A program made the translations under genes and the position numbers. This document shows, one piece after another, positions 2,152 through 48,710 of a stretch of 50,698 nucleotides of DNA. The notes below the pieces were generated by a model that was not told where the DNA came from, ran no database searches, and saw nothing but the letters and a program-made list of their open reading frames with translations. How positions within the stretch are numbered: position 1 is the first letter of the stretch; each line of letters begins with the position of its first letter. Source of the stretch: an uncultured archaeon (lineage in GTDB: Archaea > Thermoplasmatota > Penumbrarchaeia > JASLWR01); assembly GCA_964342815.1 (NCBI GenBank), contig CAYFHS010000024.1:1-50698 (forward strand), written 5' to 3'.

Positions 2152-2353
2152 AATTCTTCTATCCTTGAAATTCGTTAGATAGGTAACTTCGCTGAAATAG
2201 GTAAATCTTTCCCTTCTTGTTACTTTTTAGCTCTAATGCCCATAAGTGGCAGACAATCGAGTTGGGTGAAATACCGGCAAAAATTAAAAAGGTAGATAAA
2301 TCATCCGGGTGACCCTGTCGGACTGGTATACCGACCATATTCCCAGACACGTG

Positions 2354-2577
2354 ATGGGCCTGTTTCGAAGACAAAACTAACGTTTCACTTCTGACAGCCT
2401 CCATTTGCTCACTGCGTTCACAAATGGGCCTGTAGCGCCGTAAACCTAAACGGATCACGGCTGACAGGCAGCCATTTGCTCACTGCGTTCACAAATGGGC
2501 CTGTAGCGCCGTAAACCTAAACGGATCACGGCTGACAGGCAGCCATTTGCTCACTGCGTTCACAAATGGGCCTGTAG
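2354..2577 (+). repeat. Tandem array of 70-71 bp units (one diverged, two identical) ending in the tRNA 5' end
   Basis: ATGGGCCTGT recurs at 2354, 2424, 2495 and 2566; 2401-2471 is identical to 2472-2542. Confidence 0.95.
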
Positions 2578-2642
2578 GGTAGCTTGGTTTATCCTTGTGG
2601 CTTTGGGAGCCATAGACTCCGGTTCAAATCCGGGCAGGCCCA
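2568..2642 (+). tRNA. tRNA-Pro (anticodon TGG), intronless, CCA not encoded
   Basis: Acceptor stem GGGCCTG/CAGGCCC plus discriminator A; anticodon arm GTGGC-TTTGGGA-GCCAT; T-loop GGTTCAAATCC. Confidence 0.97.
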
Positions 2643-2667
2643 TTTACAAGCGAAGGGAGTAAATGGG
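2639..2667. repeat. Perfect 9-bp inverted repeat overlapping the tRNA 3' end
   Basis: CCCATTTAC-11 nt-GTAAATGGG. Confidence 0.85.
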
Positions 2668-2850
2668 ACTGACGAGACATTACTAGTAATACATGGATAC
2701 TATATCTTCGATTCAGCGGAATCGGTTCCTCTGGACTGCGATTCCACGAACATTGTCAAGCTGCGAAGTACGCACCATTGACAATATGCACCTGGACACC
2801 GACCTGTAAAGATGACCGCTTACAAGGTCGATAAGCTATTGATCCGTAAG

Positions 2851-2903
2851 AAATGGTTCAAGGATCGTACCTATCCCCACAAGTTCTTAAGGATTCATCA
2901 GGT
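2851..2903. repeat. Repeat family A, copy 1 (53 bp)
   Basis: 45/53 identical to 5841-5893; partial copy at 5323-5346. Confidence 0.85.
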
Positions 2904-2934
2904 ATGGACATAAAGTTAATCAATGACTACAAAT

Positions 2935-4266
2935 CTATTTTTTGATATTTTCCAATATTCTATCGACTTTATCCTCTAAAATAAATATTCTTTCTTGTGC
3001 AGATTTATTAATGCCAATAAAATAATCCCACCTATTTGTTATTATTTCTCGAATAACCTTCTCAAACACATAGTAGTAATTCATTAACATAAAATTTTTA
3101 TCTGGAAATGAATATTTAACTTTCATTTTACATTCTAAATCATAGAAATGAAGAACCTCATTCGTATCCCCCATTTCCATACGATATTTTAATAATTCTT
3201 GAAAAAAAGGTTTGTTTATCACTTCATCATATGGAATTTCACCCTTAATTTTCAATCCAGAATTTATTAAAATAAATGAAAATGTAAACGTGAAATCAGG
3301 ATTTATAAGTATTAATTTCGATTTCAGTCGCGATTGATCATATTCGATTTTTATTCTGGTATAGGGTGGTAAGAAGAAATTATTGAACTCCTTATAAAAC
3401 GCTAATGATGGCATAATATTGGATAACAAAGATTTTTTTGGAGGATGTGGGATATTCTCATTCTTCACCAATTCTCCCGTTATATTCTCCATATTATGAA
3501 CATCAATATTCTCTTCATTTAATACATTATTAATATTTACTAACCATCCATCTTTTAAGAATTTAGAGATTCCAAATAAAAAAGCATATGGTGACATTTG
3601 GATTATTAATTGTTTGATTTTATTTTCACTTATTTCATCCTTGTAATAGAAAAAGATTTTATATAGCAAATGCTCATATTCTTCTTGACATTTTGGATTC
3701 TTATATTCTAAAAGAAATCTCATCTCAGAAAATGTGAAAAATAAAATACTTCGCCAAGTAAAACATTTATCGGTCCTTCTTTCTAGGAATAACCATTGTA
3801 ATTCGTTATCAGTTACAAGTCGTTTTCCATAATCAGTCCTTATATAATAAGTCCTTTCAATAATCTCTCCATTGGACATTTTAACAAAAGCATGGGGGAT
3901 ATCTTTCTTTTTAAAAATGTTTATTATTAAAACGTTATCTCCGTTTAGCTTTAATGTCTCAAATGAAAAATCTAAAGGTGGGCTTATATTAGTCTTACAA
4001 ATATTATTTATTTGTCCTTTATATCTTTCCATATCAACTATTTTTATTCCTTCGAATTCTTTAAGGTCGGTGATTCCAATAAAAATCTTTCCTCCATTTA
4101 AATTAGCAAAAGCTATCATTTCATGAGCTAATTTCTTTTTTCCTGAAGACGTTGTAAGAATTCCCGATTCTTTGAATTCTACGGTCTTATTTTTATGTGA
4201 ATTGCTACTCAATAACTCTTGTATTTCTCCTATCGTGGTCATATGAATACTCTCCATATATACCAA
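2935..4266 (-). CDS. Schlafen/AlbA_2-domain protein with an uncharacterised C-terminal region
   Basis: VEFKES, MIAFANLNGGKIFIGITD and YYIRTDYGKR match the AlbA_2 pattern (EFK...AFAN..GG.I.IG..D...Y.R). Confidence 0.8.
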   Translation of the reverse strand: MVYMESIHMTTIGEIQELLSSNSHKNKTVEFKESGILTTSSGKKKLAHEMIAFANLNGGKIFIGITDLKEFEGIKIVDMERYKGQINNICKTNISPPLDFSFETLKLNGDNVLIINIFKKKDIPHAFVKMSNGEIIERTYYIRTDYGKRLVTDNELQWLFLERRTDKCFTWRSILFFTFSEMRFLLEYKNPKCQEEYEHLLYKIFFYYKDEISENKIKQLIIQMSPYAFLFGISKFLKDGWLVNINNVLNEENIDVHNMENITGELVKNENIPHPPKKSLLSNIMPSLAFYKEFNNFFLPPYTRIKIEYDQSRLKSKLILINPDFTFTFSFILINSGLKIKGEIPYDEVINKPFFQELLKYRMEMGDTNEVLHFYDLECKMKVKYSFPDKNFMLMNYYYVFEKVIREIITNRWDYFIGINKSAQERIFILEDKVDRILENIKK

Positions 4267-4336
4267 ATTAGGATATGATTAGAACTACATTATCCATTAA
4301 GTTATTCTCAATATTATCGATTTTACCCTATCACAT

Positions 4337-4424
4337 GGCAGTATGCTAGTGATCTAGAGCCTGATAGGGCTTAAGAGATATTCTGATACCTCCAGAGTCC
4401 ACCCCATGCATAAAACACGCTGTA
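4337..4424. repeat. Repeat family C, copy 1 (bipartite, 26 + 27 bp)
   Basis: 4337-4362 vs 7565-7590 (2 mismatches); 4398-4424 vs 7691-7717 (1 mismatch). Confidence 0.85.
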
Positions 4425-4525
4425 GAGGGGTAAGGAGAGGCTTGAAATCCATCTCTCGTTATGGTCTTATGTGCGGTTTTGAGTATTCCCATACCACAGA
4501 AAATAAGTAGGAGTGGATACAATAT

Positions 4526-5167
4526 ATGTCTAAATCAGTTGGTGATGAAATGAAACCATTTTCTTTCTTGTTAGTTCTTCTACTAATCATTCCGTCACTC
4601 TCAATTACAGGTTGTATAGACGATAATACAAAAAAGAAAAATGATGAGGATAAGTCTTACGTTTTTTTTGAAAGTTATGCGGGTTATGGAACAAATTATA
4701 TTTATAACGTATCCTTAAATAAAGACCTAGCTTTAGATGCATTAAACAAATCTATCAATATCTCGATAGAAAATATAAAACTTATAAATTTATCATGGCC
4801 GGAGAAATATATAGACATAGATTTTGATTATAATATGTCAAATATCTCAAGAGAAGTTACAGATCAATTCAATAATGATATTCATATTTATATTGAGAAA
4901 AAAGAAGTTATAATTTGGATATGGTTCCATCCTCAAGAAATAGGTTGGCAACGTGTTCCTAATAATGAATCAGAAGAATTTTTTAATATCGTAAACTCAA
5001 TAATCAAGAGAGATCGAGAAATGATGTATAATTATATTGATTCATTAGTATCTCTTTTAGAAGATAGGTTGAACCTTCCATTACCGGAATATTACGATAC
5101 TTGGGAATTAATGTCAAGAGCTGATGAATCTTTTCCAAATATGGGCGGATTAGAATCCCTTCCTTAG
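4526..5167 (+). CDS. Hypothetical lipoprotein (start may be the ATG at 4550)
   Basis: Hydrophobic signal followed by lipobox-like ITGC; no recognised domain. Confidence 0.6.
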   Translation: MSKSVGDEMKPFSFLLVLLLIIPSLSITGCIDDNTKKKNDEDKSYVFFESYAGYGTNYIYNVSLNKDLALDALNKSINISIENIKLINLSWPEKYIDIDFDYNMSNISREVTDQFNNDIHIYIEKKEVIIWIWFHPQEIGWQRVPNNESEEFFNIVNSIIKRDREMMYNYIDSLVSLLEDRLNLPLPEYYDTWELMSRADESFPNMGGLESLP

Positions 5168-5201
5168 CTTTCCCCCCTGCATCCTTCAAGCTAATCCCTT
5201 C

Positions 5202-5340
5202 CTACCCGATAATATCCCCTATCTCCTTTAATTTCTCAACCACAATCTACCCTTCTCATTAAGATAATAGTTCTTCCGCTTCCACCCCCTCTTGGATTCC
5301 CCCCATTTCTCCCTAATCTCCGCAAGTTCTTAAGGGTTGG
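5202..5340 (-). pseudogene. Frameshifted remnant of a PadR-like winged-helix gene
   Basis: Across frames reads PTLKNL / IREKWGESKRGWKRKNYYLNEKGR / IVVEKLKEIGDIIG*, resembling the PadR helix-wing (YPTLxRL..GLI...W.ES..G..RKYY.LT.KG). Confidence 0.4.
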
Positions 5341-5353
5341 TCAGGTGTGGTGA

Positions 5354-5761
5354 TTAATCGTCAATCACTTCAGCATATTCCTTTTCCTCTGAATCATCTT
5401 TTTCGACCAGTCTAATAACATCGGTTCGACTATTTTTTACAGTCTTATTATAATTATGGATATATGCGAATCCTCGAAAAAGCATGAAAGCCAATCCCAT
5501 TAACATTACTGGAATAAAACATATAGTGAAATAGTTTTTTACAAAAGGAATGAATGGAAGTAAGATAAAAATAATACCGAGTACAACCATATCAATCCCT
5601 GCATTTTTATTTACAGGATACCATAGCTCTTCGTTATCAAGTGTTGATCGGGTTCTGAATCCATATAACGGATTGGGTGGTATTAACTTAAAAATAAAGG
5701 GTATTCCTAGAACAAAAAATATAATCCCAACTGTAACTGAGGTCAAAGCAGAATAAACCAT
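5354..5761 (-). CDS. SdpI/YhfL-family membrane protein
   Basis: IPPNPLYGFRT..TL.NEELW..VNK.AG motif; three hydrophobic segments. Confidence 0.8.
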   Translation of the reverse strand: MVYSALTSVTVGIIFFVLGIPFIFKLIPPNPLYGFRTRSTLDNEELWYPVNKNAGIDMVVLGIIFILLPFIPFVKNYFTICFIPVMLMGLAFMLFRGFAYIHNYNKTVKNSRTDVIRLVEKDDSEEKEYAEVIDD

Positions 5762-5785
5762 ATTAAATACTTATATCCTACTCCA

Positions 5786-5834
5786 TCCTATATATTATTT
5801 CCATTCTGTGATACAAAAATAATCACCTATCAGG
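5786..5834. repeat. Repeat family B, copy 1 (49 bp)
   Basis: One mismatch to 6537-6585. Confidence 0.9.
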
Positions 5835-5840
5835 GATGAT

Positions 5841-5893
5841 AAATGGTTCAATGATCGTACATATCCCTACAAGTTTATTAGGGTCCATCAGGT
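5841..5893. repeat. Repeat family A, second full-length copy (53 bp)
   Basis: 45/53 identical to 2851-2903. Confidence 0.85.
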
Positions 5894-5907
5894 GTGTGTG
5901 TTAATCC

Positions 5908-6567
5908 TCAATTCCTCGGTCTCAAACCCGGTAGTGGTCCACCAAACACGAGTACAATTATGAGTACACAGATGAACACCCCGAATATGCCGAAACCTGG
6001 GATAAGGGAATCCTCTCGCATTTCTTCCTTACCTGTGGCATCGTCCGCCCTTATGATACCCGATTCGATCCGCAACACCTCTCCCTCATTGTCTATATGC
6101 AATAACTTAACGTAATACGTCTCGTCCGGAATAAGCCCCTCTATTTCTGCTTCTGTGGTTTCCCTGTCCGGGATGCTCATTATAAAATTGGTACTATTAG
6201 GCTTGCAATCCCTCTCCGTAGACATGTAAATCTCGTAATGATCGAACTTGGGGTCATCGGATTTGTACCAGGCGATTTCCTTATAGCCGGTGAGGTTCCC
6301 CCTCCTCCCGTCGAACATCTTGGACGTGGCTTCCACGGGGGTCGCCCTCTGGATCTCGCTGTATTCCTTCACAGCAGTGTCCGTGAAAGAGTAGCCCGTA
6401 TTACTTACCACATTCCATACCAGGCCTCCTAACGACAGGATGATTGCGACGAGAAGTAAAATCAGAGCGGTTTTCTTTCGGTTTCGGACTTTTTCAGGCA
6501 TGCATATATTATTAGGGACTTCGATATTTATACATTTCCTACATATTATTTCCATTCTGTGATACAA
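5908..6567 (-). CDS. Membrane-anchored FN3-like protein with a PGF-type C-terminal sorting-like signal
   Basis: N-terminal TM; AWYKSDDPKFDHYEIY...IEGLIPDETYYVKL (FN3-like); C-terminal IPGFG followed by a TM helix. Confidence 0.6.
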   Translation of the reverse strand: MYHRMEIICRKCINIEVPNNICMPEKVRNRKKTALILLLVAIILSLGGLVWNVVSNTGYSFTDTAVKEYSEIQRATPVEATSKMFDGRRGNLTGYKEIAWYKSDDPKFDHYEIYMSTERDCKPNSTNFIMSIPDRETTEAEIEGLIPDETYYVKLLHIDNEGEVLRIESGIIRADDATGKEEMREDSLIPGFGIFGVFICVLIIVLVFGGPLPGLRPRN

Positions 6568-6585
6568 AAATAATCACCTATCAGG
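6537..6585. repeat. Repeat family B, copy 2 (49 bp)
   Basis: One mismatch to 5786-5834; contains the SD-like AGGTGA and the first codons of 5908..6567. Confidence 0.9.
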
Positions 6586-6616
6586 TCTGGGTACTACTCC
6601 TCGTTTGAAGAGTATT

Positions 6617-7498
6617 CTACTGTGTCGATTCTTTCTTCCGGATTTTTCGAAATAGTATAACTAGAAGAACTATCAGAATCAAAACGAAAGTCCCTGTTAT
6701 GTAGTATTTCATATTACCATCGGTTTCCTCGACCGTATCTTCCAACTCAATTTCAACGTAAAGCATTTCTCCTGTTTCAATATCTATATAAAAAGTAGCA
6801 TTATACGTTTTATCGGACGTATAATGTTCGCTGATGATATAAGCAAATCGTGGTTCATTATATTTAGTGTAGGATTCTGGCAACCAAAATGCAGACATAG
6901 TAATGTGTTCAGGATCGTACCCATATTTCATCCCATTTGAATAAAATTTTCTAAATCGTGGATGATTAAGGGCTATCTGTAATGCTTCATCGCAATCCAG
7001 ATTATATGTTGGATTCTTCAAAGGAATCTGTTTAACACCGCGAAGATATGTTCCCTTTACATCAAAATTATCACTCTGATGATAGCTAAGATTATTATTA
7101 TAATCATCGGCAAATATCCCAAAATAGAGGAAATTTGTATTGTTAAACGGTTTAGTCTTATTGGCATAGACAATCTCAACAAGAAGATATTTCCCGTATT
7201 GACCGTCCCAACAATGGATATCGACAATAACGAAATCTCGGGATAGGTTAAATCGATTATGATTGGATTCAATAAACTCAAGTGCTTCTAAAACCGTTGT
7301 AAGTTCAAACTCATCAAATAAAATGTCTTCATTGTTCACTTCGTTGTTCCAATCAAAATCATCATTTGAAATGTCTTCATTGATCCCTTCATTGATTTCT
7401 ACATTGATCTCTACATTGTTCCAATCAAAATATACATAGGTGACGGTTCCAAAAATGAGCGTTAGACAGATTCCTACCGCAACAAATACCTTCCACAT
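6617..7498 (-). CDS. Hypothetical surface protein with N- and C-terminal TM segments (possible PepSY-like region)
   Basis: SD GGGTGAGGAG before the ATG; C-terminal TM plus RKIRKK; DEALQIAL...FYIDIETGEML weakly resembles PepSY. Confidence 0.6.
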   Translation of the reverse strand: MWKVFVAVGICLTLIFGTVTYVYFDWNNVEINVEINEGINEDISNDDFDWNNEVNNEDILFDEFELTTVLEALEFIESNHNRFNLSRDFVIVDIHCWDGQYGKYLLVEIVYANKTKPFNNTNFLYFGIFADDYNNNLSYHQSDNFDVKGTYLRGVKQIPLKNPTYNLDCDEALQIALNHPRFRKFYSNGMKYGYDPEHITMSAFWLPESYTKYNEPRFAYIISEHYTSDKTYNATFYIDIETGEMLYVEIELEDTVEETDGNMKYYITGTFVLILIVLLVILFRKIRKKESTQ

Positions 7499-7564
7499 CT
7501 CCTCACCCTATCAGTCGAAAAGATATTGTCTAACCTGTTATTTATCATTTCTGCCTTTTGTACA

Positions 7565-7717
7565 GGCACTATGCTAGTGATCTGGAGCCTAGACGGTCCT
7601 TAGTCGTGGCTTTTCAAGTCAGGAATAACCGGACTTACTTGTAAACTAAGAGAAGCCTACAGGTTTCCTCGTTATATGATGAATCTGGAATCCACCCCAT
7701 GCCTAAAACACGCTGTA
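7565..7717. repeat. Repeat family C, copy 2 (same two blocks, longer spacer)
   Basis: Blocks match 4337-4362 and 4398-4424. Confidence 0.85.
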
Positions 7718-7843
7718 TAAGGGTTAAGAGAAGCAAAATCCACTTTTCTGATATTATCTCAATCCTCCTACTTCTCCTGTTAATGATTCATGCCGACAAA
7801 CAAATGGAAGATGGATAATATTTTTCGATGGTGGAATTGAGAG

Positions 7844-8065
7844 ATGAGATTGGCGAGAGCAGAAAGATTTATGAGAAGAACTTGTTCTAGAGAAAGACTT
7901 ATAATGTTGTTCATTAATTGGCTTCATATGACAGATGAAGGATTCGATTTCGCGTTGGATGCTTTGATCCGAAATGGTGTTGTAATTCAAATACCCGATT
8001 CTGAGGAAAGACTTGCATATTATGTCAATCCTCGGTTCAATTCTTTTAAGGTTTGTAATAATTAA
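7844..8065 (+). CDS. Small hypothetical protein, possibly a degraded winged-helix gene
   Basis: FDFALDALIRNGVV...YYVNP resembles a wHTH helix and wing; the 5' end is uncertain. Confidence 0.3.
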   Translation: MRLARAERFMRRTCSRERLIMLFINWLHMTDEGFDFALDALIRNGVVIQIPDSEERLAYYVNPRFNSFKVCNN

Positions 8066-8105
8066 TGTCATGGATGATTCGCTAATGCAAAGGAGGGTGA
8101 AGAAA

Positions 8106-8393
8106 ATGGCAAATGTAAATTACGATGAAGGAACAATTCAATTAGCCAATGACTGGTATGCCGCAGAAGGATTAAAAAATAAGATCGCTGATATGCTTGC
8201 TTCTGGTAATTATAAGATAAGCAACTATGCCACTGCGCTGGAAGAATTGGATGGAAAGATGGAGGGATCCGAATCTATATCTGCAGTTTTGACTGCAAAG
8301 ATATTGGATGGGTTGAAAAAGATCAGTTCAAAATCTTCCAAAAGTATGGGTGACTGTATCAGAGAAGCTTTAACCATATACTTACGCCCTTGA
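8106..8393 (+). CDS. Protein with a C-terminal ribbon-helix-helix (CopG-like) domain
   Basis: SD GGAGGGTG before the ATG at 8106; ISAVLTAKILDGLKKIS...SMGDCIREALTIYL fits the RHH pattern. Confidence 0.65.
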   Translation: MANVNYDEGTIQLANDWYAAEGLKNKIADMLASGNYKISNYATALEELDGKMEGSESISAVLTAKILDGLKKISSKSSKSMGDCIREALTIYLRP

Positions 8394-8654
8394 AATATCC
8401 TTGCGTGGGGCATCCGATCAATGCAACTATGATGCTTCGAAGACGATCTTTCTCAATATCATGTTCTATCAAAGGATGGACTTACTTGAAATGAAGATGG
8501 AATTTTGCAGGAGGGTTTTCGAAAAGAACAAGTTCTAGTTGCTTCGTCCGGGTTTAATTTACATCTCTATATGTTTCAAAAACAAACGACTTAATCAAAC
8601 ATATAGCTTTTCGTTTCAATTTTTAAAGACCTATTACTAAAAGATCAAGAACAG

Positions 8655-8990
8655 AAGGCTTTACTTGAAAAGTCGGGTACTACTCCGGCTTGAAAGTGTG
8701 ACACGCCAAGGGGTGTGTCTTCACTTGTAAAGACGGGAACAAAGTGACTGTCTTCTTGGTAAAGTTGAGCCAGAATGGGTCGGCTTTACACGTAAAGTCA
8801 TCACTTGACAAGGCTTGAACGGAAATGCCCGGTCAAGTGCGATCTACCCCGATGCTATCGGTGGGTACATCTACATTGGTGAGCCAGGATGGGTCACCTT
8901 AACCGGGGCCCCAATTCACGCTATAATCGGGCATTGTAGATATGGCACACTAAATCAAATTCCAAGCCATCGCTTGAAAAGAAAGCGCTT
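8655..8990 (+). ncRNA. Candidate structured non-coding RNA or structured ssDNA element; family unknown, strand inferred
   Basis: At least seven hairpins, two with the same apical motif on different stems; TATA-like TTTTAAAG near 8621. Confidence 0.5.
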
Positions 8991-8993
8991 CAG

Positions 8994-9203
8994 TTATCCC
9001 TCGTACTTGAAGGATAGCTTTATTCGAGCCCGAAACGAAACGATTTTGTTGTCAATGATCTTTGTGTCAAGTTTTTCAACTTCACAAATTCGGATATCTC
9101 GAAGGGTTTCTGCAGCCTTGGATACCGCATTGCTTACGGCCTCTTCCCAGCTGTTTTCCGACGAGCCAACAAGCTCTATTACCTTATAAATGCTTTCAGT
9201 CAT
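8994..9203 (-). CDS. Dodecin (flavin-binding)
   Basis: YKVIELVGSSENSWEEAVSNAV.KA..TLR...KLSFK is the dodecin signature; 69 aa. Confidence 0.92.
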   Translation of the reverse strand: MTESIYKVIELVGSSENSWEEAVSNAVSKAAETLRDIRICEVEKLDTKIIDNKIVSFRARIKLSFKYEG

Positions 9204-9514
9204 GTTATATCACCTCTGAGTTATCAATATAAGAAGGATATATAATAAATTGTTGGTATCATATTGTCAAATGGGCGAACCTTGACAGAATGAATCGTGA
9301 ATTGGAAAATTCACTTCAACCGACATAACATGAATTTCAATTTCTAGGCTCTGTGATGGCCTATATTGGGCCTCTGGGAACCGGGTAAAGTTTTGGTAGA
9401 ACAGAATACATTTTTGGTTCACTCTATCAGTAATTGCTCGTTTCAGATACTGCGGGAGAATTGAAACGAGATTGGAATGATTATATAGAATGAAGACGGA
9501 TACAATGGAATAAT

Positions 9515-10132
9515 ATGGAAACAGAAGACAAGTATTATCGGGCACCATTGGGTGCTGGAACACTGATTATCACGATATTTGCTATAATATTAATATCATT
9601 CACAATATATTTGACTCTGGCAACTGCTACTTATATTGCAGCATTTTATACACCTATAATAATTTTGATTCTTCTTATTTCATATCTACCAGTTCCAGAT
9701 GGATATTACCTAAGTAAAGAAGGAATTGTAATCTCTCGAAGAATCCATGATATATCAATCCCTTATGATACTATATCTGATATCGAGTATAAGCATAACA
9801 GAATTCTTTTTAGTTTTTTTTCAGTTGGGAATAGAGGTTGGTTTGGCTGGGCTTGCAGTGCTTACTATATTAGATATGGGTGGGTAAAGATCTACAGCAG
9901 GAAGATATCAAATATCGTGCTCATCTATACGAAATCGGGGGGGAACTATGCTCTTGCACCAGAGAATCCGGAAGATTTCGTGAGCGATATCAAATCAAAG
10001 ATTAAAATAACTGGAAAAGACCACTATCGCGATTTAAGCGTTGAGCAAAGGATTGAAGGAGAAATGAGATATCTTGGGTTTATAGAAGAAAAGAAAGAAG
10101 AACCAGAATTCGCTGAAGTAATTGATTTTTAA
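9515..10132 (+). CDS. Membrane protein with a bacterial PH-like domain
   Basis: Two N-terminal TMs, then IPYDTISDI..GNRGWFGWAC.Y...YGWVKIY......VLI.T...NYALAPENPEDF. Confidence 0.65.
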   Translation: METEDKYYRAPLGAGTLIITIFAIILISFTIYLTLATATYIAAFYTPIIILILLISYLPVPDGYYLSKEGIVISRRIHDISIPYDTISDIEYKHNRILFSFFSVGNRGWFGWACSAYYIRYGWVKIYSRKISNIVLIYTKSGGNYALAPENPEDFVSDIKSKIKITGKDHYRDLSVEQRIEGEMRYLGFIEEKKEEPEFAEVIDF

Positions 10133-10363
10133 CTTCTCAATACTGAATATGACAAGGTGTCTGCTAGGGTCTCAATAGGACGTTCTTAGGATCCGGATAG
10201 TGTGGGTAGGTGGAAGGATGACTAAGGCCGAACATATGTCTAAAACAACAGTATCCAGAACTCTTGGAAGCTATGAACAGAGATGTAAAGAATTTATAAG
10301 ATGAAATTGATGGGTCACCATCGATACTCTCATTATATTCTATCATCAAAGGTTTGTGAATGA

Positions 10364-11353
10364 ATGACTCATATTCAAACGAATAAAGGTATAAAGATCA
10401 TTTTCATCGCACTCATTGTCCTGATCGGACTTGGGATTATCAGCTCATTTGTACAGGAAAATCTGTTCAGAAGTATGATAAGAAGCAGATCCTCGGGAAG
10501 TTTTTCTGATACTATGGAGACCATCGACACATTATATGATGTATTCCATATATTTACGCTGCTCCTGATGTGTTTGGTTTTGTACGGAGCCTATACTGTA
10601 TATAAGGACGGCTCTGGTTTCAGCGAAACGCATAAACAGAAAACTAAGATCGGCTTGGTTTTTATAGGTATTTGGGTAGTATTTTCTGTTTTTTTCTTTT
10701 TAAGAGAGAATGGCTACCTGTATCTTTTCACCTACACGATATCCAGTATCGCATATGCAATAGGGATGTATTTATTGGTAATGGAGATTGCTCCCAAGTT
10801 CCAAAAGAAAATAATGTTGATAGGAATGATATTCATAATAGCGTCTGGTATTTTCCTATTGATTTCTTCTAAGCTATACATAGGAGCAGGGGCGTCAAGC
10901 GTTCTCGGCAGTATCGGAAGGATATTATTCATTGTTGCCTTTGTCGAGATATACTTCATCTTGACCGGGAATGATGTAGGATTACCTGAAGAGTTAACTA
11001 AAGTGACCGTTGAGAAGAAAGAAGAAGATAGTGGAGATATTAAGGACGAAGTAATACCTATTGAAGACATTAAGGATGAAGAAAAACCTGCTGTAGATAT
11101 CATAGATGAAGTGAAAGAAAAAGAAGAAAGCCACACATTCATGGATAGGATATTGGAAGATCGGACCAAGGAACTAGTGATCAACGAATACGCGGAAAAG
11201 TTCAATATTTCCTTACAACATGCCGAAGTTATATTCACATCGGGTTACTATAAAATAGAAGATCTTAATAGCTCAAGTATCGAGGAATTATTGATTATTG
11301 ATGAGATAAATCCAACAATTGCAAGAAAGATTGTAAATTATTTTAAGGATTAG
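10364..11353 (+). CDS. Multi-pass membrane protein with an acidic linker and C-terminal helix-hairpin-helix
   Basis: About six TM segments; SGYYKIEDL...SIEELL.IDEINPTIARKI is HhH-like. Confidence 0.65.
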   Translation: MTHIQTNKGIKIIFIALIVLIGLGIISSFVQENLFRSMIRSRSSGSFSDTMETIDTLYDVFHIFTLLLMCLVLYGAYTVYKDGSGFSETHKQKTKIGLVFIGIWVVFSVFFFLRENGYLYLFTYTISSIAYAIGMYLLVMEIAPKFQKKIMLIGMIFIIASGIFLLISSKLYIGAGASSVLGSIGRILFIVAFVEIYFILTGNDVGLPEELTKVTVEKKEEDSGDIKDEVIPIEDIKDEEKPAVDIIDEVKEKEESHTFMDRILEDRTKELVINEYAEKFNISLQHAEVIFTSGYYKIEDLNSSSIEELLIIDEINPTIARKIVNYFKD

Positions 11354-11865
11354 TGTCTGAAATAAATTCTCTGATGTCCCAGTAACGGGAAGAGTGAGTT
11401 ATTTCACTACGATGGATCTACTTGAAGTATATCTAATGGTTCTATACATTTGTGAGGCTATCACCTGCTGGTCGATATTCCTTTGTATTATGTTTGTTTT
11501 TCTTTAATAATAGTACTTTTCGATCTATCAAAGGGCGTCTCGGTGACTGTGATCACCTCTATTCTAACAACGGGGTGATATTGGAAAATGTGGATTTGTT
11601 AAAAGATTGTTTAGAGGGAAGGGGAGAGTAAAAAATTTTTTAAGGTATTTGGCCGGTGTCGGTTTCGGAGCCGTAAAAAGCGGGATATAAGATTTCAACT
11701 CAGGTGGAGTTTATTGGAGTGCGAAAATTCCATTGGATATCAAAGTTATTTAGTATTATAAAATAAATATATGAAAAAGTTTCACTCGATTTTGATTCTA
11801 TTTTACGTTGTGGTTAGAGTTTGTGTCGTTTAAGATGAACAATATTCAAATGTGGGTTGTTCATT

Positions 11866-12195
11866 TTATCGTTTATAAGTGTCTCTTCTTACTTTTCCTG
11901 TGTCCATATCTATGGTAACATTGATTGGTTCTTCCCAATCCAGTACCAGATTGATAACAACAGCTCTGTTTCGATAACTCACATTTAGCTCCGAGACCTG
12001 AGACTTGTAAACCTTGTATCTTTTCCCATCGGAAGATAGTAATTTTCCCTCGCATTTCAATAAACCGGTTTCTTCCAATTCTCTTACTTTACGGTAACAG
12101 GTGGCAAGCGGGATGAAGTACAAGAATGCCATATCTCTTACGCTCAAAGCTTTTCTTGATGTGGAAGAAAGTATCTTGAGGTTATATTGATCCAT
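11866..12195 (-). CDS. Winged-helix (ArsR/HTH_20-like) transcriptional regulator; true start uncertain
   Basis: LSVRDMA...IPLATCYRKVRELEETGLL...DGKRYKVYKS. Confidence 0.8.
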   Translation of the reverse strand: MDQYNLKILSSTSRKALSVRDMAFLYFIPLATCYRKVRELEETGLLKCEGKLLSSDGKRYKVYKSQVSELNVSYRNRAVVINLVLDWEEPINVTIDMDTGKVRRDTYKR

Positions 12196-12323
12196 TAAAA
12201 GCTGTGCAATATTCAGTTCACGGATCTCGATATTTTCTCAGACATCGATAATTCTTTCCTGCATGATCACACCAAATATTCTATATTCTTATATTTATAC
12301 CTCCGATTCACTAAAATAAATCA

Positions 12324-12965
12324 TCACCTCAGTGTAATAAATCTAGTTTCATATACTGGCGGTGTGGTGATCTCCGCTCGGGTCGGGATGCCGTGCTTGG
12401 TAATTATCTTTATGCTAAATGTTTCCTGAATGCCAATCGATAAGCCGGTCTCATTACAGTCGATGTAGAATACCGCTACATCGCCCGGTGTCATCAGTCC
12501 AGTGGTAGAAGATACGTTCAAAGGTGCCATATCCCTTAATGGACGAGACTCGAAACTATCTGCATCGGCAGCTGCACCCCACACCGCTCCGGAGTCAACC
12601 CAGGTAAGGGTTGCATCTGTTGAATCATCATTTATCTCTATAATAACATCAGACACGTTGATGTTTGGGCTTCCGGCCAATAGGCTCACCTTTACCTTCA
12701 ATTGATTGATTATTGTGTCTGCAAAACTATCTGCGTTGTTTCGATCTCCGACCACATTAATCAATTTGAAACCGGTTGATACTTCTTCTAACGTGGATTT
12801 TCCGGTTTTTTCAGCCTGTTGCTGCATGCTAAAAGCTGTCGAAATAAGCACCGCTGCTGCTACAATGGCAACGATGATCATAGCGATGAACACTATCAAC
12901 GTGCCAACTCCCATTTCGGCATTCTTATTTAACAGAATTTTCGTTTTTCCTCTGGTGTTTCCCAT
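12324..12965 (-). CDS. flaB: Archaellin (archaeal flagellin)
   Basis: Class III signal peptide and N-terminal helix KNAEMGVGTLIVFIAMIIVAIVAAAVLI; AEKTGK..LEEVS. Confidence 0.92.
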   Translation of the reverse strand: MGNTRGKTKILLNKNAEMGVGTLIVFIAMIIVAIVAAAVLISTAFSMQQQAEKTGKSTLEEVSTGFKLINVVGDRNNADSFADTIINQLKVKVSLLAGSPNINVSDVIIEINDDSTDATLTWVDSGAVWGAAADADSFESRPLRDMAPLNVSSTTGLMTPGDVAVFYIDCNETGLSIGIQETFSIKIITKHGIPTRAEITTPPVYETRFITLR

Positions 12966-13120
12966 TTTTCATCCCTCGCTTGCTTTTTTCACATCCCAAA
13001 CCGCTGATAATTGCTGGTATTATTTCATCGGCGGGCTAGTAAATAATTAAGGATCTATCTTATTTTTGAGAATTAGTACTGATTATGCATATTAATTATA
13101 CGAAATAATTACAACCTCTA

Positions 13121-13151
13121 ATAATCAAAGGTGATTATCATTTTTGATAAT
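13121..13151. promoter_or_regulatory. Two overlapping 7-4-7 inverted repeats (candidate operator) in the divergent region upstream of flaB
   Basis: ATAATCA-AAGG-TGATTAT (13121-13138) and ATTATCA-TTTT-TGATAAT (13134-13151). Confidence 0.4.
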
Positions 13152-13404
13152 TGATCGTTTATTGAATTTCTTATGAAACCAGTTTTCATAAATTTCATGT
13201 CAGATCGAAATGAAAGATTGCATGATTTTTATTGTTTAATAAGAGTGTCAAATAAATTTTTTAATTACCCGTTTGCTTCTTGTTCAATTTAAAAACCCTG
13301 GAAACGCTGAATTCCACAGAATCATTTACTGGTCGCCGGGATTTCATATCTTCATTTTACCCAAAGTATTCTGTCATGTAAAATTATTTATCCGATGTGA
13401 AATA

Positions 13405-46166: not shown

Positions 46167-48710
46167 ATGAACGAAAGAATGATAGAGAAAATAGTTTCTA
46201 TTTGTATTATTACAAGCATGCTTCTCCCTGCATTCTTGCTTGTACGACCAACTGATGCTGCATCGCCGCTCACCGTGATCGGCAGTGGTACCGGAGCGGA
46301 TTCCGGAGATCGATTTGGACATTTTGTTGAGCAGATCCCGGACATCACCGGCGACGGTCTCGGCGAGCTGATGACCGGTGCTCCATTCAATTCTTCAGGT
46401 GGCGCGAACGCCGGTGCGGTCTACATATTCTTTTCACCATTGAAAGGAAGGACTATCGACTCCAACAATGCAAACGTAAACATCACGGGCACTATCGCCG
46501 GTCAGAACTTCGGATATAGCGGGGCGTACATTCCAAATGCCTTCACCGGGATTGGAGGGGGTGAGATCGCTATCGGATGCCCGGGTAATGATTCCGATAA
46601 CGGGAGCGTATACATTTTTGAGCTTACAACACTGTCAGGAGGAGGTACATTCACCTCCCACGACGCTGATTATTATGTTTTGGGGGAAACCCAAGAAAAA
46701 TTGGGTTTTTCTCTATCTATGGCCGGTGATGTGGACGATGACAACACTCCTGATATACTAATAGGCGCTCCAAACGGGACCGCTGCCTATTACAACGTAA
46801 CCGGAAGCAGGTCGGGTAGAGCCTATGTCATATATGGTAAAGCTGGTGCACCTCCGGTGAATTCCAGTCTCGCAGACGTTACAATCAAGGGTTGGGAGGA
46901 CCTGGCAATGTTCGGTTTTTCAGTCTCAGCGGCCGGAAAGGTTAATGCCGGTAGTGTTGACGATATAATAATAGGAGCTCCGGGGAACGGCTCTTCTGGT
47001 ATGGCTTACATATATCTTGGCAATCCAGGTGGGCTTGCCGCTGATAGAACGAGCAGGGATGCTAACGTCAATATTACCGAGGGAACCGCGGGTCTTGAAC
47101 TGGGATATTCGGTAAATTGTTCAGGGGATTTCAATGGTGACGGCATCGATGATGTTGTGATAGGTGCACCTGGTTTAAACGGTGGACATGGAGCAGCATA
47201 CGTGGTATTCGGATCCATTAACGATGTTCTCGCGGACGTTGACCTCAGCGCTCCCGGTAACGGGTATCTTGGTATTATGGGGCTTGAGGAGGGAAGATTA
47301 GGGCACTCCGTTACTGGTCTGACCGATATGGACGGCGACGGCTATGATGACTGCATGCTAGGCGCGCCTCTTCAAAACGAAACGAGAGGTTTTGCATTTA
47401 CTTTTTTCGGTAATGCGTCCTTTCCGAACCAGTTCATTTCCACTGTGAATTCAAATGGTACAAGTAATGGGACCACTGCCGGAGAGAAATTCGGCTCATG
47501 TGTATCCGAAGGTGGTAATGCGGACGGCGACATTTATCCCGATGCTTTCGTAGGAGCACCCAATGCGACCAATGCAAAGGGAAAGATATATGTTATGAAA
47601 ATGGATCACCTGCCGGTCCTTTCTATCCCGGAACCAGTTTCGCCTATAAAGGGAAATGCCACCACAGCCTTTACCTACAAGGTTATTTACAGTGATATTG
47701 AGAACGATCCTCCTGCATCACAGTATCCGAAAGTAAATATTTACAAGGACTTTGAGGGGAACAATTTGAACAATTCCTCCCCAATGATACTGGACACCAA
47801 TGCAGATAATTATCTCCATGATGCAGATTATACCAATGGTGAGCAGTATTACTTCACCACGATACTGGGAACCGAACGCAATTATAATTATCAATTCGAG
47901 AGCTATGCAGCAAACAACCTCGTTGAGCTTGTGAATACAACACTTCAGACAAACGAGAGTGACGGCCCGAAACCTATAGTTGACACAACAGAACCTTTTC
48001 AGATCACAGGTCTGAATGCTATAGATACCCCAGGAGATCACGGTGGATCGATATATATGAATTGGACTCCTCTTTCCATAAATGATTTCCATAATTATGA
48101 GATCTTTATCGGAAACCATAGTTTCAATAATGTTCAGACCACGACCCCTCATAAAATAATTCAGGATATAAATGAGACGTATTGCACCATAACCACTTAC
48201 AAGGGTGGGGCATTGGAGAACTACAAAGAATACTGGGTGGGTGTGGGTGCCAAAGACGATGTTGGAAACCGAATAATCTCCCTTGCTTCAGTAAAGGTGA
48301 TACCGAAGGACAATTTCAATTTGCTTCCAGGGAATATCACCGATCTTGGAGCAGTCAGTGGGAGATTAGAGGGAGAAGTGCACCTAAACTGGACTGCTGT
48401 AGGGGAGGATATGATGAGTAATGGGCCTGTTTCTGAATATATTGTGAAATATTCCACGAAGCGAGACTTTTTCAGCAATAGTGATTGGAATGCTGGAACG
48501 ACCATTGAACTTAACATCATTCCCAAGACGCCCGAGAAAATTATGGAAGTTAATATTCAGGGGCTCATAGTTGGGACAAGATACTTTTTTGCGGTAAGAG
48601 GTGTCGATTCAGTGGGTCAGATGTCCAATCTATCCAATAGTGCTGATGCCTTCCCCAGTGATGCGCCAGACCTTACAGCCCCGGACCCCGTATACGGTGT
48701 GACAATTTAG
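46167..48710 (+). CDS. FG-GAP/integrin-alpha repeat plus FN3 surface protein, N-terminal part (ends at an in-frame TAG)
   Basis: Signal peptide; about seven G..FG.S....GD..GDG.DD...GAP repeats; FN3-like repeats. Confidence 0.85.
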   Translation: MNERMIEKIVSICIITSMLLPAFLLVRPTDAASPLTVIGSGTGADSGDRFGHFVEQIPDITGDGLGELMTGAPFNSSGGANAGAVYIFFSPLKGRTIDSNNANVNITGTIAGQNFGYSGAYIPNAFTGIGGGEIAIGCPGNDSDNGSVYIFELTTLSGGGTFTSHDADYYVLGETQEKLGFSLSMAGDVDDDNTPDILIGAPNGTAAYYNVTGSRSGRAYVIYGKAGAPPVNSSLADVTIKGWEDLAMFGFSVSAAGKVNAGSVDDIIIGAPGNGSSGMAYIYLGNPGGLAADRTSRDANVNITEGTAGLELGYSVNCSGDFNGDGIDDVVIGAPGLNGGHGAAYVVFGSINDVLADVDLSAPGNGYLGIMGLEEGRLGHSVTGLTDMDGDGYDDCMLGAPLQNETRGFAFTFFGNASFPNQFISTVNSNGTSNGTTAGEKFGSCVSEGGNADGDIYPDAFVGAPNATNAKGKIYVMKMDHLPVLSIPEPVSPIKGNATTAFTYKVIYSDIENDPPASQYPKVNIYKDFEGNNLNNSSPMILDTNADNYLHDADYTNGEQYYFTTILGTERNYNYQFESYAANNLVELVNTTLQTNESDGPKPIVDTTEPFQITGLNAIDTPGDHGGSIYMNWTPLSINDFHNYEIFIGNHSFNNVQTTTPHKIIQDINETYCTITTYKGGALENYKEYWVGVGAKDDVGNRIISLASVKVIPKDNFNLLPGNITDLGAVSGRLEGEVHLNWTAVGEDMMSNGPVSEYIVKYSTKRDFFSNSDWNAGTTIELNIIPKTPEKIMEVNIQGLIVGTRYFFAVRGVDSVGQMSNLSNSADAFPSDAPDLTAPDPVYGVTI

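Follow-up and report, generated by a model that had tools for sequence, protein, structure and literature searches.

The closest described counterparts of the element reported here are t-elements, tRNA-like sequences that are cut by RNase P and tRNase Z both in Haloferax volcanii, where they lie upstream of 5S rRNA (PMC4326828), and in plant mitochondria (PMC1920247). Here, we analyzed a window of 50,698 nucleotides (nt), i.e., the whole of contig CAYFHS010000024.1 (C24) from an uncultured archaeon, in which the gene for tRNA-Pro(UGG) is bracketed by inverted copies of one hairpin. The upstream copy turned out to be the third copy of a linker hairpin, H, within a tandem repeat in which H alternates with a second hairpin, M, of 40–57 nt, whose outer stem imitates a tRNA acceptor stem. 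Such M-H units adjoin a series of tRNA genes in this genome, in direct orientation when upstream and inverted when downstream, and this systematic mirror polarity is the new point of the finding. Judging from the sequence, the bracket in the window is a direct array that meets the stump of an inverted one.

The likeness to t-elements lies in a non-tRNA, acceptor-like stem in polycistronic precursors that may serve as a cleavage mark for RNase P and tRNase Z, for which there is thus an archaeal precedent; M shares with them the acceptor-like stem and the 3' discriminator base. However, t-elements have a fuller tRNA-like fold with a T-arm and stand singly beside other genes, whereas M is a plain hairpin without an elbow, is repeated in tandem with a linker, copies the arm of the adjacent tRNA and occurs in mirrored form, and its cleavage is only predicted. 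In Escherichia coli, the 178-bp repeats of tyrT re-use the tRNA 3' end. Like the arrays described here, these repeats are tandem, directly adjoin a tRNA gene, contain a copy of a tRNA end, probably arose by local duplication and are co-transcribed, but they lie downstream only, do not mimic acceptor stems and have neither a linker hairpin nor mirror polarity. Short imperfect palindromes arrayed in both orientations, with a fixed short sequence at the hairpin foot, are also typical of repetitive extragenic palindromic (REP) sequences, bacterial interspersed mosaic elements (BIMEs) and their REP-associated tyrosine transposases (RAYT), as well as of IS200/IS605 elements; in contrast, no Y1 gene was found here, the modules are not dispersed but confined to tRNA ends, and their arm follows the local tRNA. 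Archaeal integrative elements with SSV-type or pTN3-type integrases leave partial tRNA duplications, attL and attR. These resemble the present case in that tRNA-end copies lie beside tRNA genes and that a strain-specific island starts beside the downstream hairpin, but here only 8–12 nt are copied, the hairpins covary and recur with a period of about 70 nt, and the contig holds neither an integrase nor a direct repeat of the tRNA 3' half. Finally, the processing stems of rRNA operons likewise consist of inverted repeats that bracket the gene of a stable RNA and are able to pair into a long helix, but the present arrangement has no bulge-helix-bulge (BHB) motif, is not general among array-bearing tRNAs and has arms that are themselves self-complementary local hairpins. 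Our literature search found t-elements and no description of such tRNA-end arrays, so that the repeat system appears to be undescribed, at loci that are considered among the best understood.

The tRNA-Pro(UGG) locus

The window comes from the metagenome-assembled genome (MAG) of a marine Thermoplasmatota archaeon (G000; 4.35 Mb, 116 contigs, 89% complete), whose congener in our reference set is "Thermoplasmatota archaeon ETNP2_MAG_1" (G001). The locus contains the following features, where R1 denotes our covariance model of M.

2279–2299, plus strand: AT-rich, TATA-like box aaaaattaaaaaggtagataa, seen in the sequence and kept upstream of the congener ortholog
2356–2403, plus strand: M3, the outermost, diverged acceptor-stem mimic, GGGCCTGTTTCGAAG..CTTCTGACAGCCTCCA (R1, 47.3 bits, E = 1.7e-10; nhmmer)
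2401–2427, plus strand: H copy 1, CCATTTG-CTCACTGCGTTC-ACAAATGG (repeat and hairpin analysis)
2426–2474, plus strand: M1 copy a, 49 nt, its first 10 nt equal to tRNA nt 1–10 (R1, 55.6 bits; 71-nt repeat)
2472–2498, plus strand: H copy 2 (repeat and hairpin analysis)
2497–2545, plus strand: M1 copy b, identical to copy a (exact repeat; R1)
2543–2569, plus strand: H copy 3, the upstream hairpin of the bracket, its 3' arm ending in tRNA G1-G2
2568–2642, plus strand: tRNA-Pro(UGG) (Rfam RF00005, 54.8 bits; ARAGORN)
2639–2667, minus strand: H', the downstream hairpin of the bracket, CCCATTTAC-TCCCTTCGCTT-GTAAATGGG, an H-type linker aimed at the tRNA 3' end
2668–2680, minus strand: stretch whose reverse complement, CTCGTCAGTCCCA, resembles the M 3' end CTGACAGTCCCA (sequence)
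2700–13350, no strand: low-GC (0.34–0.39), strain-specific 10.6-kb island; the congener has about 1.2 kb there

The tRNA is of the archaeal type (G1-C72, A73, CCA not encoded). ARAGORN placed its bounds at 2567–2643, since T-1 pairs with A73, and an Rfam scan of the locus returned the tRNA and two chance-level rows, with no other family. Upstream of it, the order is AT-rich box, M3, H, M1, H, M1, H, tRNA and then H'. The stretch 2401–2577 is an exact tandem repeat of 2.5 copies of a 71-nt unit (100% identity) that reaches 10 nt into the tRNA, so that the tRNA itself forms a fourth register. Each unit consists of H plus M, which at this locus is a covarying hairpin of 47–49 nt that starts with tRNA nt 1–10 (GGGCCTGTAG) and ends in ..CTGACAGGCAGCCA. 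The box at 2279–2299, which we infer to be the promoter, is the sole promoter-like element upstream of array and tRNA; no AT-rich box lies between the array and tRNA-Pro(UGG).

A first-pass annotation of the window had described the two hairpins as mirror copies fused to the acceptor strands, and this description was borne out. The upstream flank is a local hairpin CCATTTG..CAAATGG and the downstream flank a local hairpin CCCATTTAC..GTAAATGGG; their arms (2543–2574 and 2635–2666) form a 32-nt inverted repeat with 78% complementarity, 7 or 8 nt of which belong to the acceptor arms and are thus complementary in any case. Beyond the shared TGGGCCTG, the flanks are identical at 17 of 25 positions in a fixed register. 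Only 60 of 8,701,958 genomic 25-mers match the upstream flank equally well, the best-scoring of them being further tRNA-flanking copies, and chance is excluded as the source of the likeness. The stem pair that was said to covary between the two hairpins (G-C vs. A-T) does so. The hairpin arms also run 2–4 nt into the acceptor strand that each adjoins, that of H' taking in tRNA C70-A73. On the downstream side, only H' survives, at the point where G000 and G001 diverge, and a search with R1 with filters off detected neither an intact M nor an M remnant beside it. H' is preceded by only TTT after A73, short of the hairpin plus at least five T of an intrinsic-type terminator; runs of T5–T7 are carried by the array homologues at Leu, Gly and Pro(GGG) tRNAs.

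The sequencing runs listed for the locus come from marine metagenomes, with no RNA run among them. In a comparison with four of the DNA runs, Logan contigs from runs other than the likely source confirmed positions 1967–2422 of the window as well as a 101-nt repeat cycle, a unitig of which shows the H-M1-H cycle in read-derived contigs; this provides partial independent support. De Bruijn contigs break inside the repeat, so that the number of identical M1 copies is that of the assembly alone, and read coverage of H' comes only from the likely source sample.

M modules form a family at tRNA ends

When all tRNA flanks of the genome were inspected, one to three M-H units were found immediately upstream of Arg-UCU, Arg-CCU, Ala-UGC, Ala-CGC, Pro-CGG, Met/Ile-CAU and Lys-CUU. 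These tRNAs all begin with GGG; not counting tRNA-Pro(UGG), M-H arrays stand upstream of eight such tRNAs in the MAG. In its 5' arm, M repeats exactly the first 8–12 nt of the adjacent tRNA (GGGCGCG at Arg-CCU, GGGCCTG at Pro and Met, GGGCACG at Arg-UCG of the congener) and its 3' arm reads ..CTGAC.G.CCCA, giving an acceptor-like outer stem of 8 bp, GGGCCYGT/AC.G.CCC, followed by an invariant A. That the arm copies the local tRNA argues for local duplication rather than insertion from elsewhere.

We also analyzed covariation in an alignment of 16 M units (A1). Inner-stem columns 13 and 45 pair as CG in seven units, AU in five and UA in four, while columns 14 and 44 pair as UA in six, CG in five, AU in four and UG in one. 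Pairing was possible in 88.9% of cells, compared to 30–50% when the partner was slid, and none of 500 shuffles reached the observed covariation score. The covariance model found 17 sites in this genome, 11 in the congener and two in another genus of the same family; 58 further relatives gave none. All 17 sites adjoin tRNAs, and nhmmer, the covariance model and a hairpin regular expression detected no copy away from tRNAs in G000; the sites fetched from this genome and its relatives all lie beside a tRNA, with one exception that lies beside masked sequence. A pattern scan of genome contigs for M returned 63 stretches, nearly all of them chance matches in GC-rich bacteria, the exception being ETNP2_MAG_1 with three.

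The interior of M falls into three subfamilies (GCCG../..CGGC, GTTGC../..GCAAC and GAAG../..CTTC), which are common to unlinked tRNA loci. At orthologous tRNAs of the two congeners (G000 vs. G001), the number of units was 2 vs. 1 at Met, 2 vs. 3 at Ala-UGC, 3 vs. 2 at Arg-CCU and 2 vs. 1 at Arg-UCU, and unit order varied as well; the arrays therefore turn over quickly. The nearest kin of M1 and H of the window stand at tRNA-Ile(GAU) of the congener (L094; C83:3355–3515), with an M 3' end CAGGCAACCA and an H TTTACTCACTGCGTTCATAAA; thus, close modules sit at tRNAs of different identity.

M folds as a single irregular hairpin, with no T-arm or elbow as in t-elements, and the Rfam tRNA model gave no match to it even at E values up to 10, matching only the real tRNA. 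We also considered M as a C/D-box or kink-turn element, with CTGA as box D, and rejected this on inspection, there being no box C and no GA facing CTGA.

H linkers are G-poor local hairpins

The linkers were surveyed in 30 spacers from three genomes. They measure 22–31 nt and contain, on the array strand, 8.8% G, 31% C and 35% T. Their loops are of two types, TTCGCTCA-like repeats and AACCCCAA..CCCCA, with a pyrimidine-rich consensus around TCAYTCGC / CTCGCTTCGCT. The first and last 4–5 nt of each spacer pair with one another (TTAC/GTAA, TTGT/ACAA, TTTG/CAAA, TTAT/ATAA). Complementarity of these arms averaged 3.5 of 5 within a spacer, compared to 2.1 of 5 between spacers (permutation p<1e-4), and pairing therefore takes place inside H, not across one M. 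The H stem extends into the CCCA of the preceding unit and the GGG (TGGG) of the next unit or the tRNA, which accounts for the "fusion" to the acceptor strands in the original description.

Array polarity is set by the tRNA end

The loop motif CTCnCTnCGnT, which the first-pass annotation had proposed to seek at tRNA flanks, has 102 occurrences genome-wide. Of these, nine are found no more than 150 nt from a tRNA, where 0.31 would be expected (about 29-fold); five of the nine are upstream on the same strand, four downstream on the opposite strand and none in any other arrangement. A complete inverted array was found at the intron-containing tRNA-Pro(GGG), where the repeat interrupted the assembly. 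Contigs C11 and C57 both begin within an M-H array, and their first bases (C11:1–110, C57:1–55), which overlap as reverse complements, allow the two to be joined; the order then becomes AT-rich box, M, H, M, H and the reverse complement of the tRNA gene, i.e., an inverted array with its own distal AT-rich box abuts the tRNA 3' end. At the congener ortholog of tRNA-Pro(UGG) (L089), H' is followed by a complete inverted M (37.7 bits), and the strand of this inverted array carries an H-like leader and its own AT-rich stretch; the leader next to that tRNA is not H-like, yet H' is retained. Inverted equivalents of H' stand at C57:90 and at L089. The mirror arrangement noted at a single tRNA is, together with these cases and the motif counts, the rule: a module abuts GGGCCYG and reads tRNA-ward on either strand.

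To assess polarity more broadly, we compared both strands of 18 tRNA-flanking arrays, including the unlike arrays of Leu, Gly and Glu tRNAs with periods of 60–184 nt. In all 10 upstream arrays, C exceeded G on the tRNA strand and the opposite strand folded better, while in all eight downstream arrays, G exceeded C on the tRNA strand, which was also the better-folding one. The G-poor strand thus reads towards the tRNA in 18 of 18 arrays, direct upstream and inverted downstream, and the polarity of the element is therefore set by the tRNA end and not by the direction of the tRNA. When their flanks are included, the 5' and 3' ends of these tRNA genes are the reverse complement of one another (AATGGGCCTG / CAGGCCCATT), so that a junction formed at one of them can be fitted to the other when inverted. 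As read from the copies themselves, duplication of the modules is local and keeps register with the tRNA end, and the modules stand at either end in mirror orientation.

The arrays of the other kind adjoin Leu and Gly tRNAs that start with GCG as well as tRNA-Glu (C27:46200–46519, C10:26640–26814, C5:73450–73755, C59:5584–5790, C30:48105–48260 and C7:110794–111040). Their periods are about 60–150 nt. Each unit closes with a copy of the tRNA 3' end, and hairpins with T5–7, a purine loop and A5–7 stand between the units; on both strands, each unit resembles a bidirectional terminator of A-run, hairpin and T-run. Their loop AAGCGAAGCGAG is the exact reverse complement of the loop in the Lys-CUU leader. 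A different tRNA-derived upstream element is found in another family of the same class (L007, L008, L009 and L012), where a copy of nt 1–28 of tRNA-Pro lies about 100–190 nt upstream of that tRNA. The copy is followed by a hairpin with a covarying stem (CTCCAAC/GTTGGAG, CTCCCGT/ACGGGAG, GGGTTCT/AGAACCC) and a constant loop TTCCCCGAA, and TTTCAYTCGCC is conserved about 10–25 nt before the tRNA.

A possible role in processing of tRNA transcripts

tRNAs without arrays have TATA-like boxes 25–45 nt upstream, whereas upstream arrays sit between the sole TATA-like box and the tRNA. These box positions, together with the distal AT-rich boxes of inverted arrays, argue that the G-poor strand is transcribed towards the tRNA, and since upstream arrays stand between the sole promoter-like box and the tRNA, we infer that they must be transcribed as a pre-tRNA leader. 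We accordingly favor, at a probability of about 0.45, a reading in which local duplication spreads the modules, transcription runs through them together with the tRNA or in its direction, and the resulting RNAs mimic tRNA ends and are cut by RNase P and tRNase Z. The same tRNA-end junction would become anchored to either end by recombination or template switching; at the present locus, this would have given a three-unit direct array upstream and, downstream, an inverted array of which the last linker is left, its M having presumably been lost where the 10.6-kb island now begins. Within the leader, each M would present the tRNA-like ends T-1|G+1 and CCC-A| to RNase P, whose RNA is present in the genome, and to tRNase Z, and the leader might be cut, as with t-elements, into hairpins and short pyrimidine-rich linkers. 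H would gather neighboring cleavage sites at the base of a single small helix while competing transiently with the first three to four acceptor pairs. The earlier suggestion of a competition between hairpins and acceptor stem in tRNA maturation would be feasible on structural grounds; H overlaps 3–4 nt of each adjoining acceptor arm.

Several observations weigh against this reading. In 26 of 29 units, the strand complementary to the presumed transcript gives the better fold of M, by a mean of 3.7 kcal/mol, as it does in 25 of 29 when DNA parameters are used. One A·C (or C·A) opposition, which is a G·U on the other strand, is kept in all three M subfamilies; it lies in the inner helix (A1 columns 17 and 41) and recurs in the homologues in L085–L093. 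Altogether, M has 49 G·U pairs on the opposite strand vs. 20 on the array strand, and tetraloops of the form C(GNRA)G number 6 of 16 on the opposite strand vs. 0 of 14 on the array strand. This asymmetry points to a function of the other strand or of the DNA, or to a deliberate mismatch. The folding advantage is mainly due to the conserved A·C opposition and to base composition; we regard the strand signal as real but undecided, being partly compositional and derived from related copies. Moreover, recognition of M by RNase P or tRNase Z is an assumption, M having no T-arm or elbow; its 3' end is CCCA even at the G73 tRNAs (Arg and Lys), so it does not follow tRNA identity; in DNA palindromes, apparent compensatory changes can also arise free of selection through templated correction of quasi-palindromes; and the inverted downstream array has no obvious role in processing.

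Alternatively, the arrays could be non-functional, self-perpetuating palindromic DNA, produced by replication slippage, unequal crossing-over and fold-back template switching at the inverted repeat of the acceptor arm, with quasi-palindrome correction rather than RNA selection preserving the hairpin shape. Such an origin would agree with the exact, recent duplication in the window, with the variation in copy number and order between congeners, and with a polarity that is mirror-symmetric about the tRNA and does not follow the direction of transcription. It would also agree with the two modelled M helices, in which G·U and A·C oppositions are balanced at six each and give no RNA-strand signal, and with the T-runs on both strands of the related Leu/Gly arrays, which should stop transcription either way. 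We nevertheless consider it unlikely: the A·C mismatch is kept in three subfamilies and not "corrected," the strong depletion of G in H and the loop motifs conserved across two genera suggest a strand-specific constraint, and M subfamilies are shared by unlinked tRNA loci. If, instead, function resided in the G-rich strand, directed away from the tRNA, one would expect downstream arrays to serve as structured 3' trailers or as fail-safe terminator hairpins of the tRNA transcript, and upstream arrays to exert their effect on antisense transcripts or within single-stranded DNA. The better fold (26 of 29 M units, 18 of 18 arrays), the conserved G·U and the C(GNRA)G loops are all on that strand, and the Leu/Gly/Glu units, read on the tRNA strand, are built like an intrinsic terminator, with T5–T7 after a hairpin. 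However, no promoter is positioned to yield antisense transcripts from the tRNA 5' end, H' of the window has only T3, part of the energy gap follows from the G·U pairing available to G-rich strands, and the GNRA count comes from related copies; we hold this option to be improbable.

Another explanation would be a processing stem specific to tRNA-Pro(UGG), in which leader and trailer pair, extend the acceptor stem and present the pre-tRNA for endonucleolytic release. RNAfold indeed placed the cloverleaf of 2540–2672 atop a 25-nt leader–trailer helix in both the minimum free energy and the centroid structure (-61.5 kcal/mol; z = -5.6; 0 of 200 shuffles equally stable). Yet seven other array-bearing tRNAs have no matching trailer, H arms covary within the spacer and so favor local hairpins, the congener keeps H' although its adjacent leader is not H-like, and the whole array would offer the leader many alternative partners; the internal loops are symmetric (3x3, 1x1), with no opposed 3-nt bulges and hence no BHB motif. 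A processing stem is thus rather improbable, and the helix predicted for the isolated pre-tRNA may be a local consequence of the mirror arrangement and not the purpose of the system. By far the least probable explanation is the mobile element suggested by the first-pass annotation, i.e., an HUH (IS200/IS605, REP/RAYT-like) or tyrosine-recombinase element that inserts beside GGGCCTG on either strand. The mirror arrangement at both tRNA ends and a hairpin with a conserved loop that directly adjoins a fixed sequence had made this attractive, but the link to HUH systems was not supported. A six-frame search for a Y1/HUH transposase or RAYT gene (Y1_Tnp, PF01797) gave no match in the 89%-complete genome, although six of 14 control genomes matched. 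Genome-wide dispersal, as for IS200/IS605 or REP/RAYT members, was not seen either: the modules occur only beside tRNAs, as at 17 of 17 model sites, and the unit arm copies the local tRNA. The four tyrosine recombinases of the genome are all far from arrays, the island adjoining H' holds no integrase, and the 10–12 nt of tRNA duplicated are too short for a typical att site. Restriction to tRNA ends, locally matched arms and the absence of PF01797 and integrase matches make a transposase-driven element unlikely.

More generally, and tentatively, the arrays may represent a novel archaeal repeat system of tRNA genes that has no dedicated enzyme gene, is anchored by their palindromic ends, spreads to both of these in mirror orientation and is maintained by selection, as tRNA-like punctuation of transcripts that converge on the tRNA or as a structured insulator at the DNA or RNA level. 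Should the modules prove to be processed, they would constitute the first naturally occurring arrays of minimal tRNA-end mimics known from archaea and a native form of "tRNA-punctuated" small-RNA production, and could be used to probe what archaeal RNase P and tRNase Z minimally require of a substrate. If they are products at the DNA level, the inverted repeat of the acceptor arm of a tRNA gene can seed the growth of mirror-image repeats, and structural variation as well as assembly breaks at tRNA loci would have a new source.

The neighboring island

The island that follows H' is context only and lies outside the repeat system. It encodes a Schlafen/AlbA_2 protein (2935–4266), SdpI-like, fn3, bPH and HhH proteins and an archaeal flagellin (12324–12965); a Pfam search found no integrase at 2.7–16 kb of the contig (about 13 kb adjoining the array). 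An integration scar was considered for the locus and rejected, given this result, the lack of a second, directly repeated copy of the tRNA 3' half in the contig and the copying of only 10–12 nt, where about 20–50 nt would be expected. An exact AATGGGCCTGT at 48420 lies inside a coding sequence and was set aside as a chance match. Elsewhere in the genome, a tyrosine recombinase gene (C26:52338–52829) lies about 470 nt downstream of tRNA-Thr(UGU) and is probably part of an ordinary integrated element unrelated to the arrays.

The island opens with a dispersed repeat of about 57 nt at 2710–2767 (extending up to 2790) that contains an inverted repeat ATTGTCAAGC..CATTGACAAT. This repeat has 17 further copies in G000, at 79–93% identity, and at least eight in the congener, one of which likewise lies close behind a tRNA-Ile array, on its downstream side; the repeat could be a miniature inverted-repeat transposable element or a regulatory palindrome. 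Three further short dispersed repeats of the island, at 5775–5845 (with a copy at 6537–6585), 8650–8735 and 4335–4430, each have three to seven further copies on other contigs.

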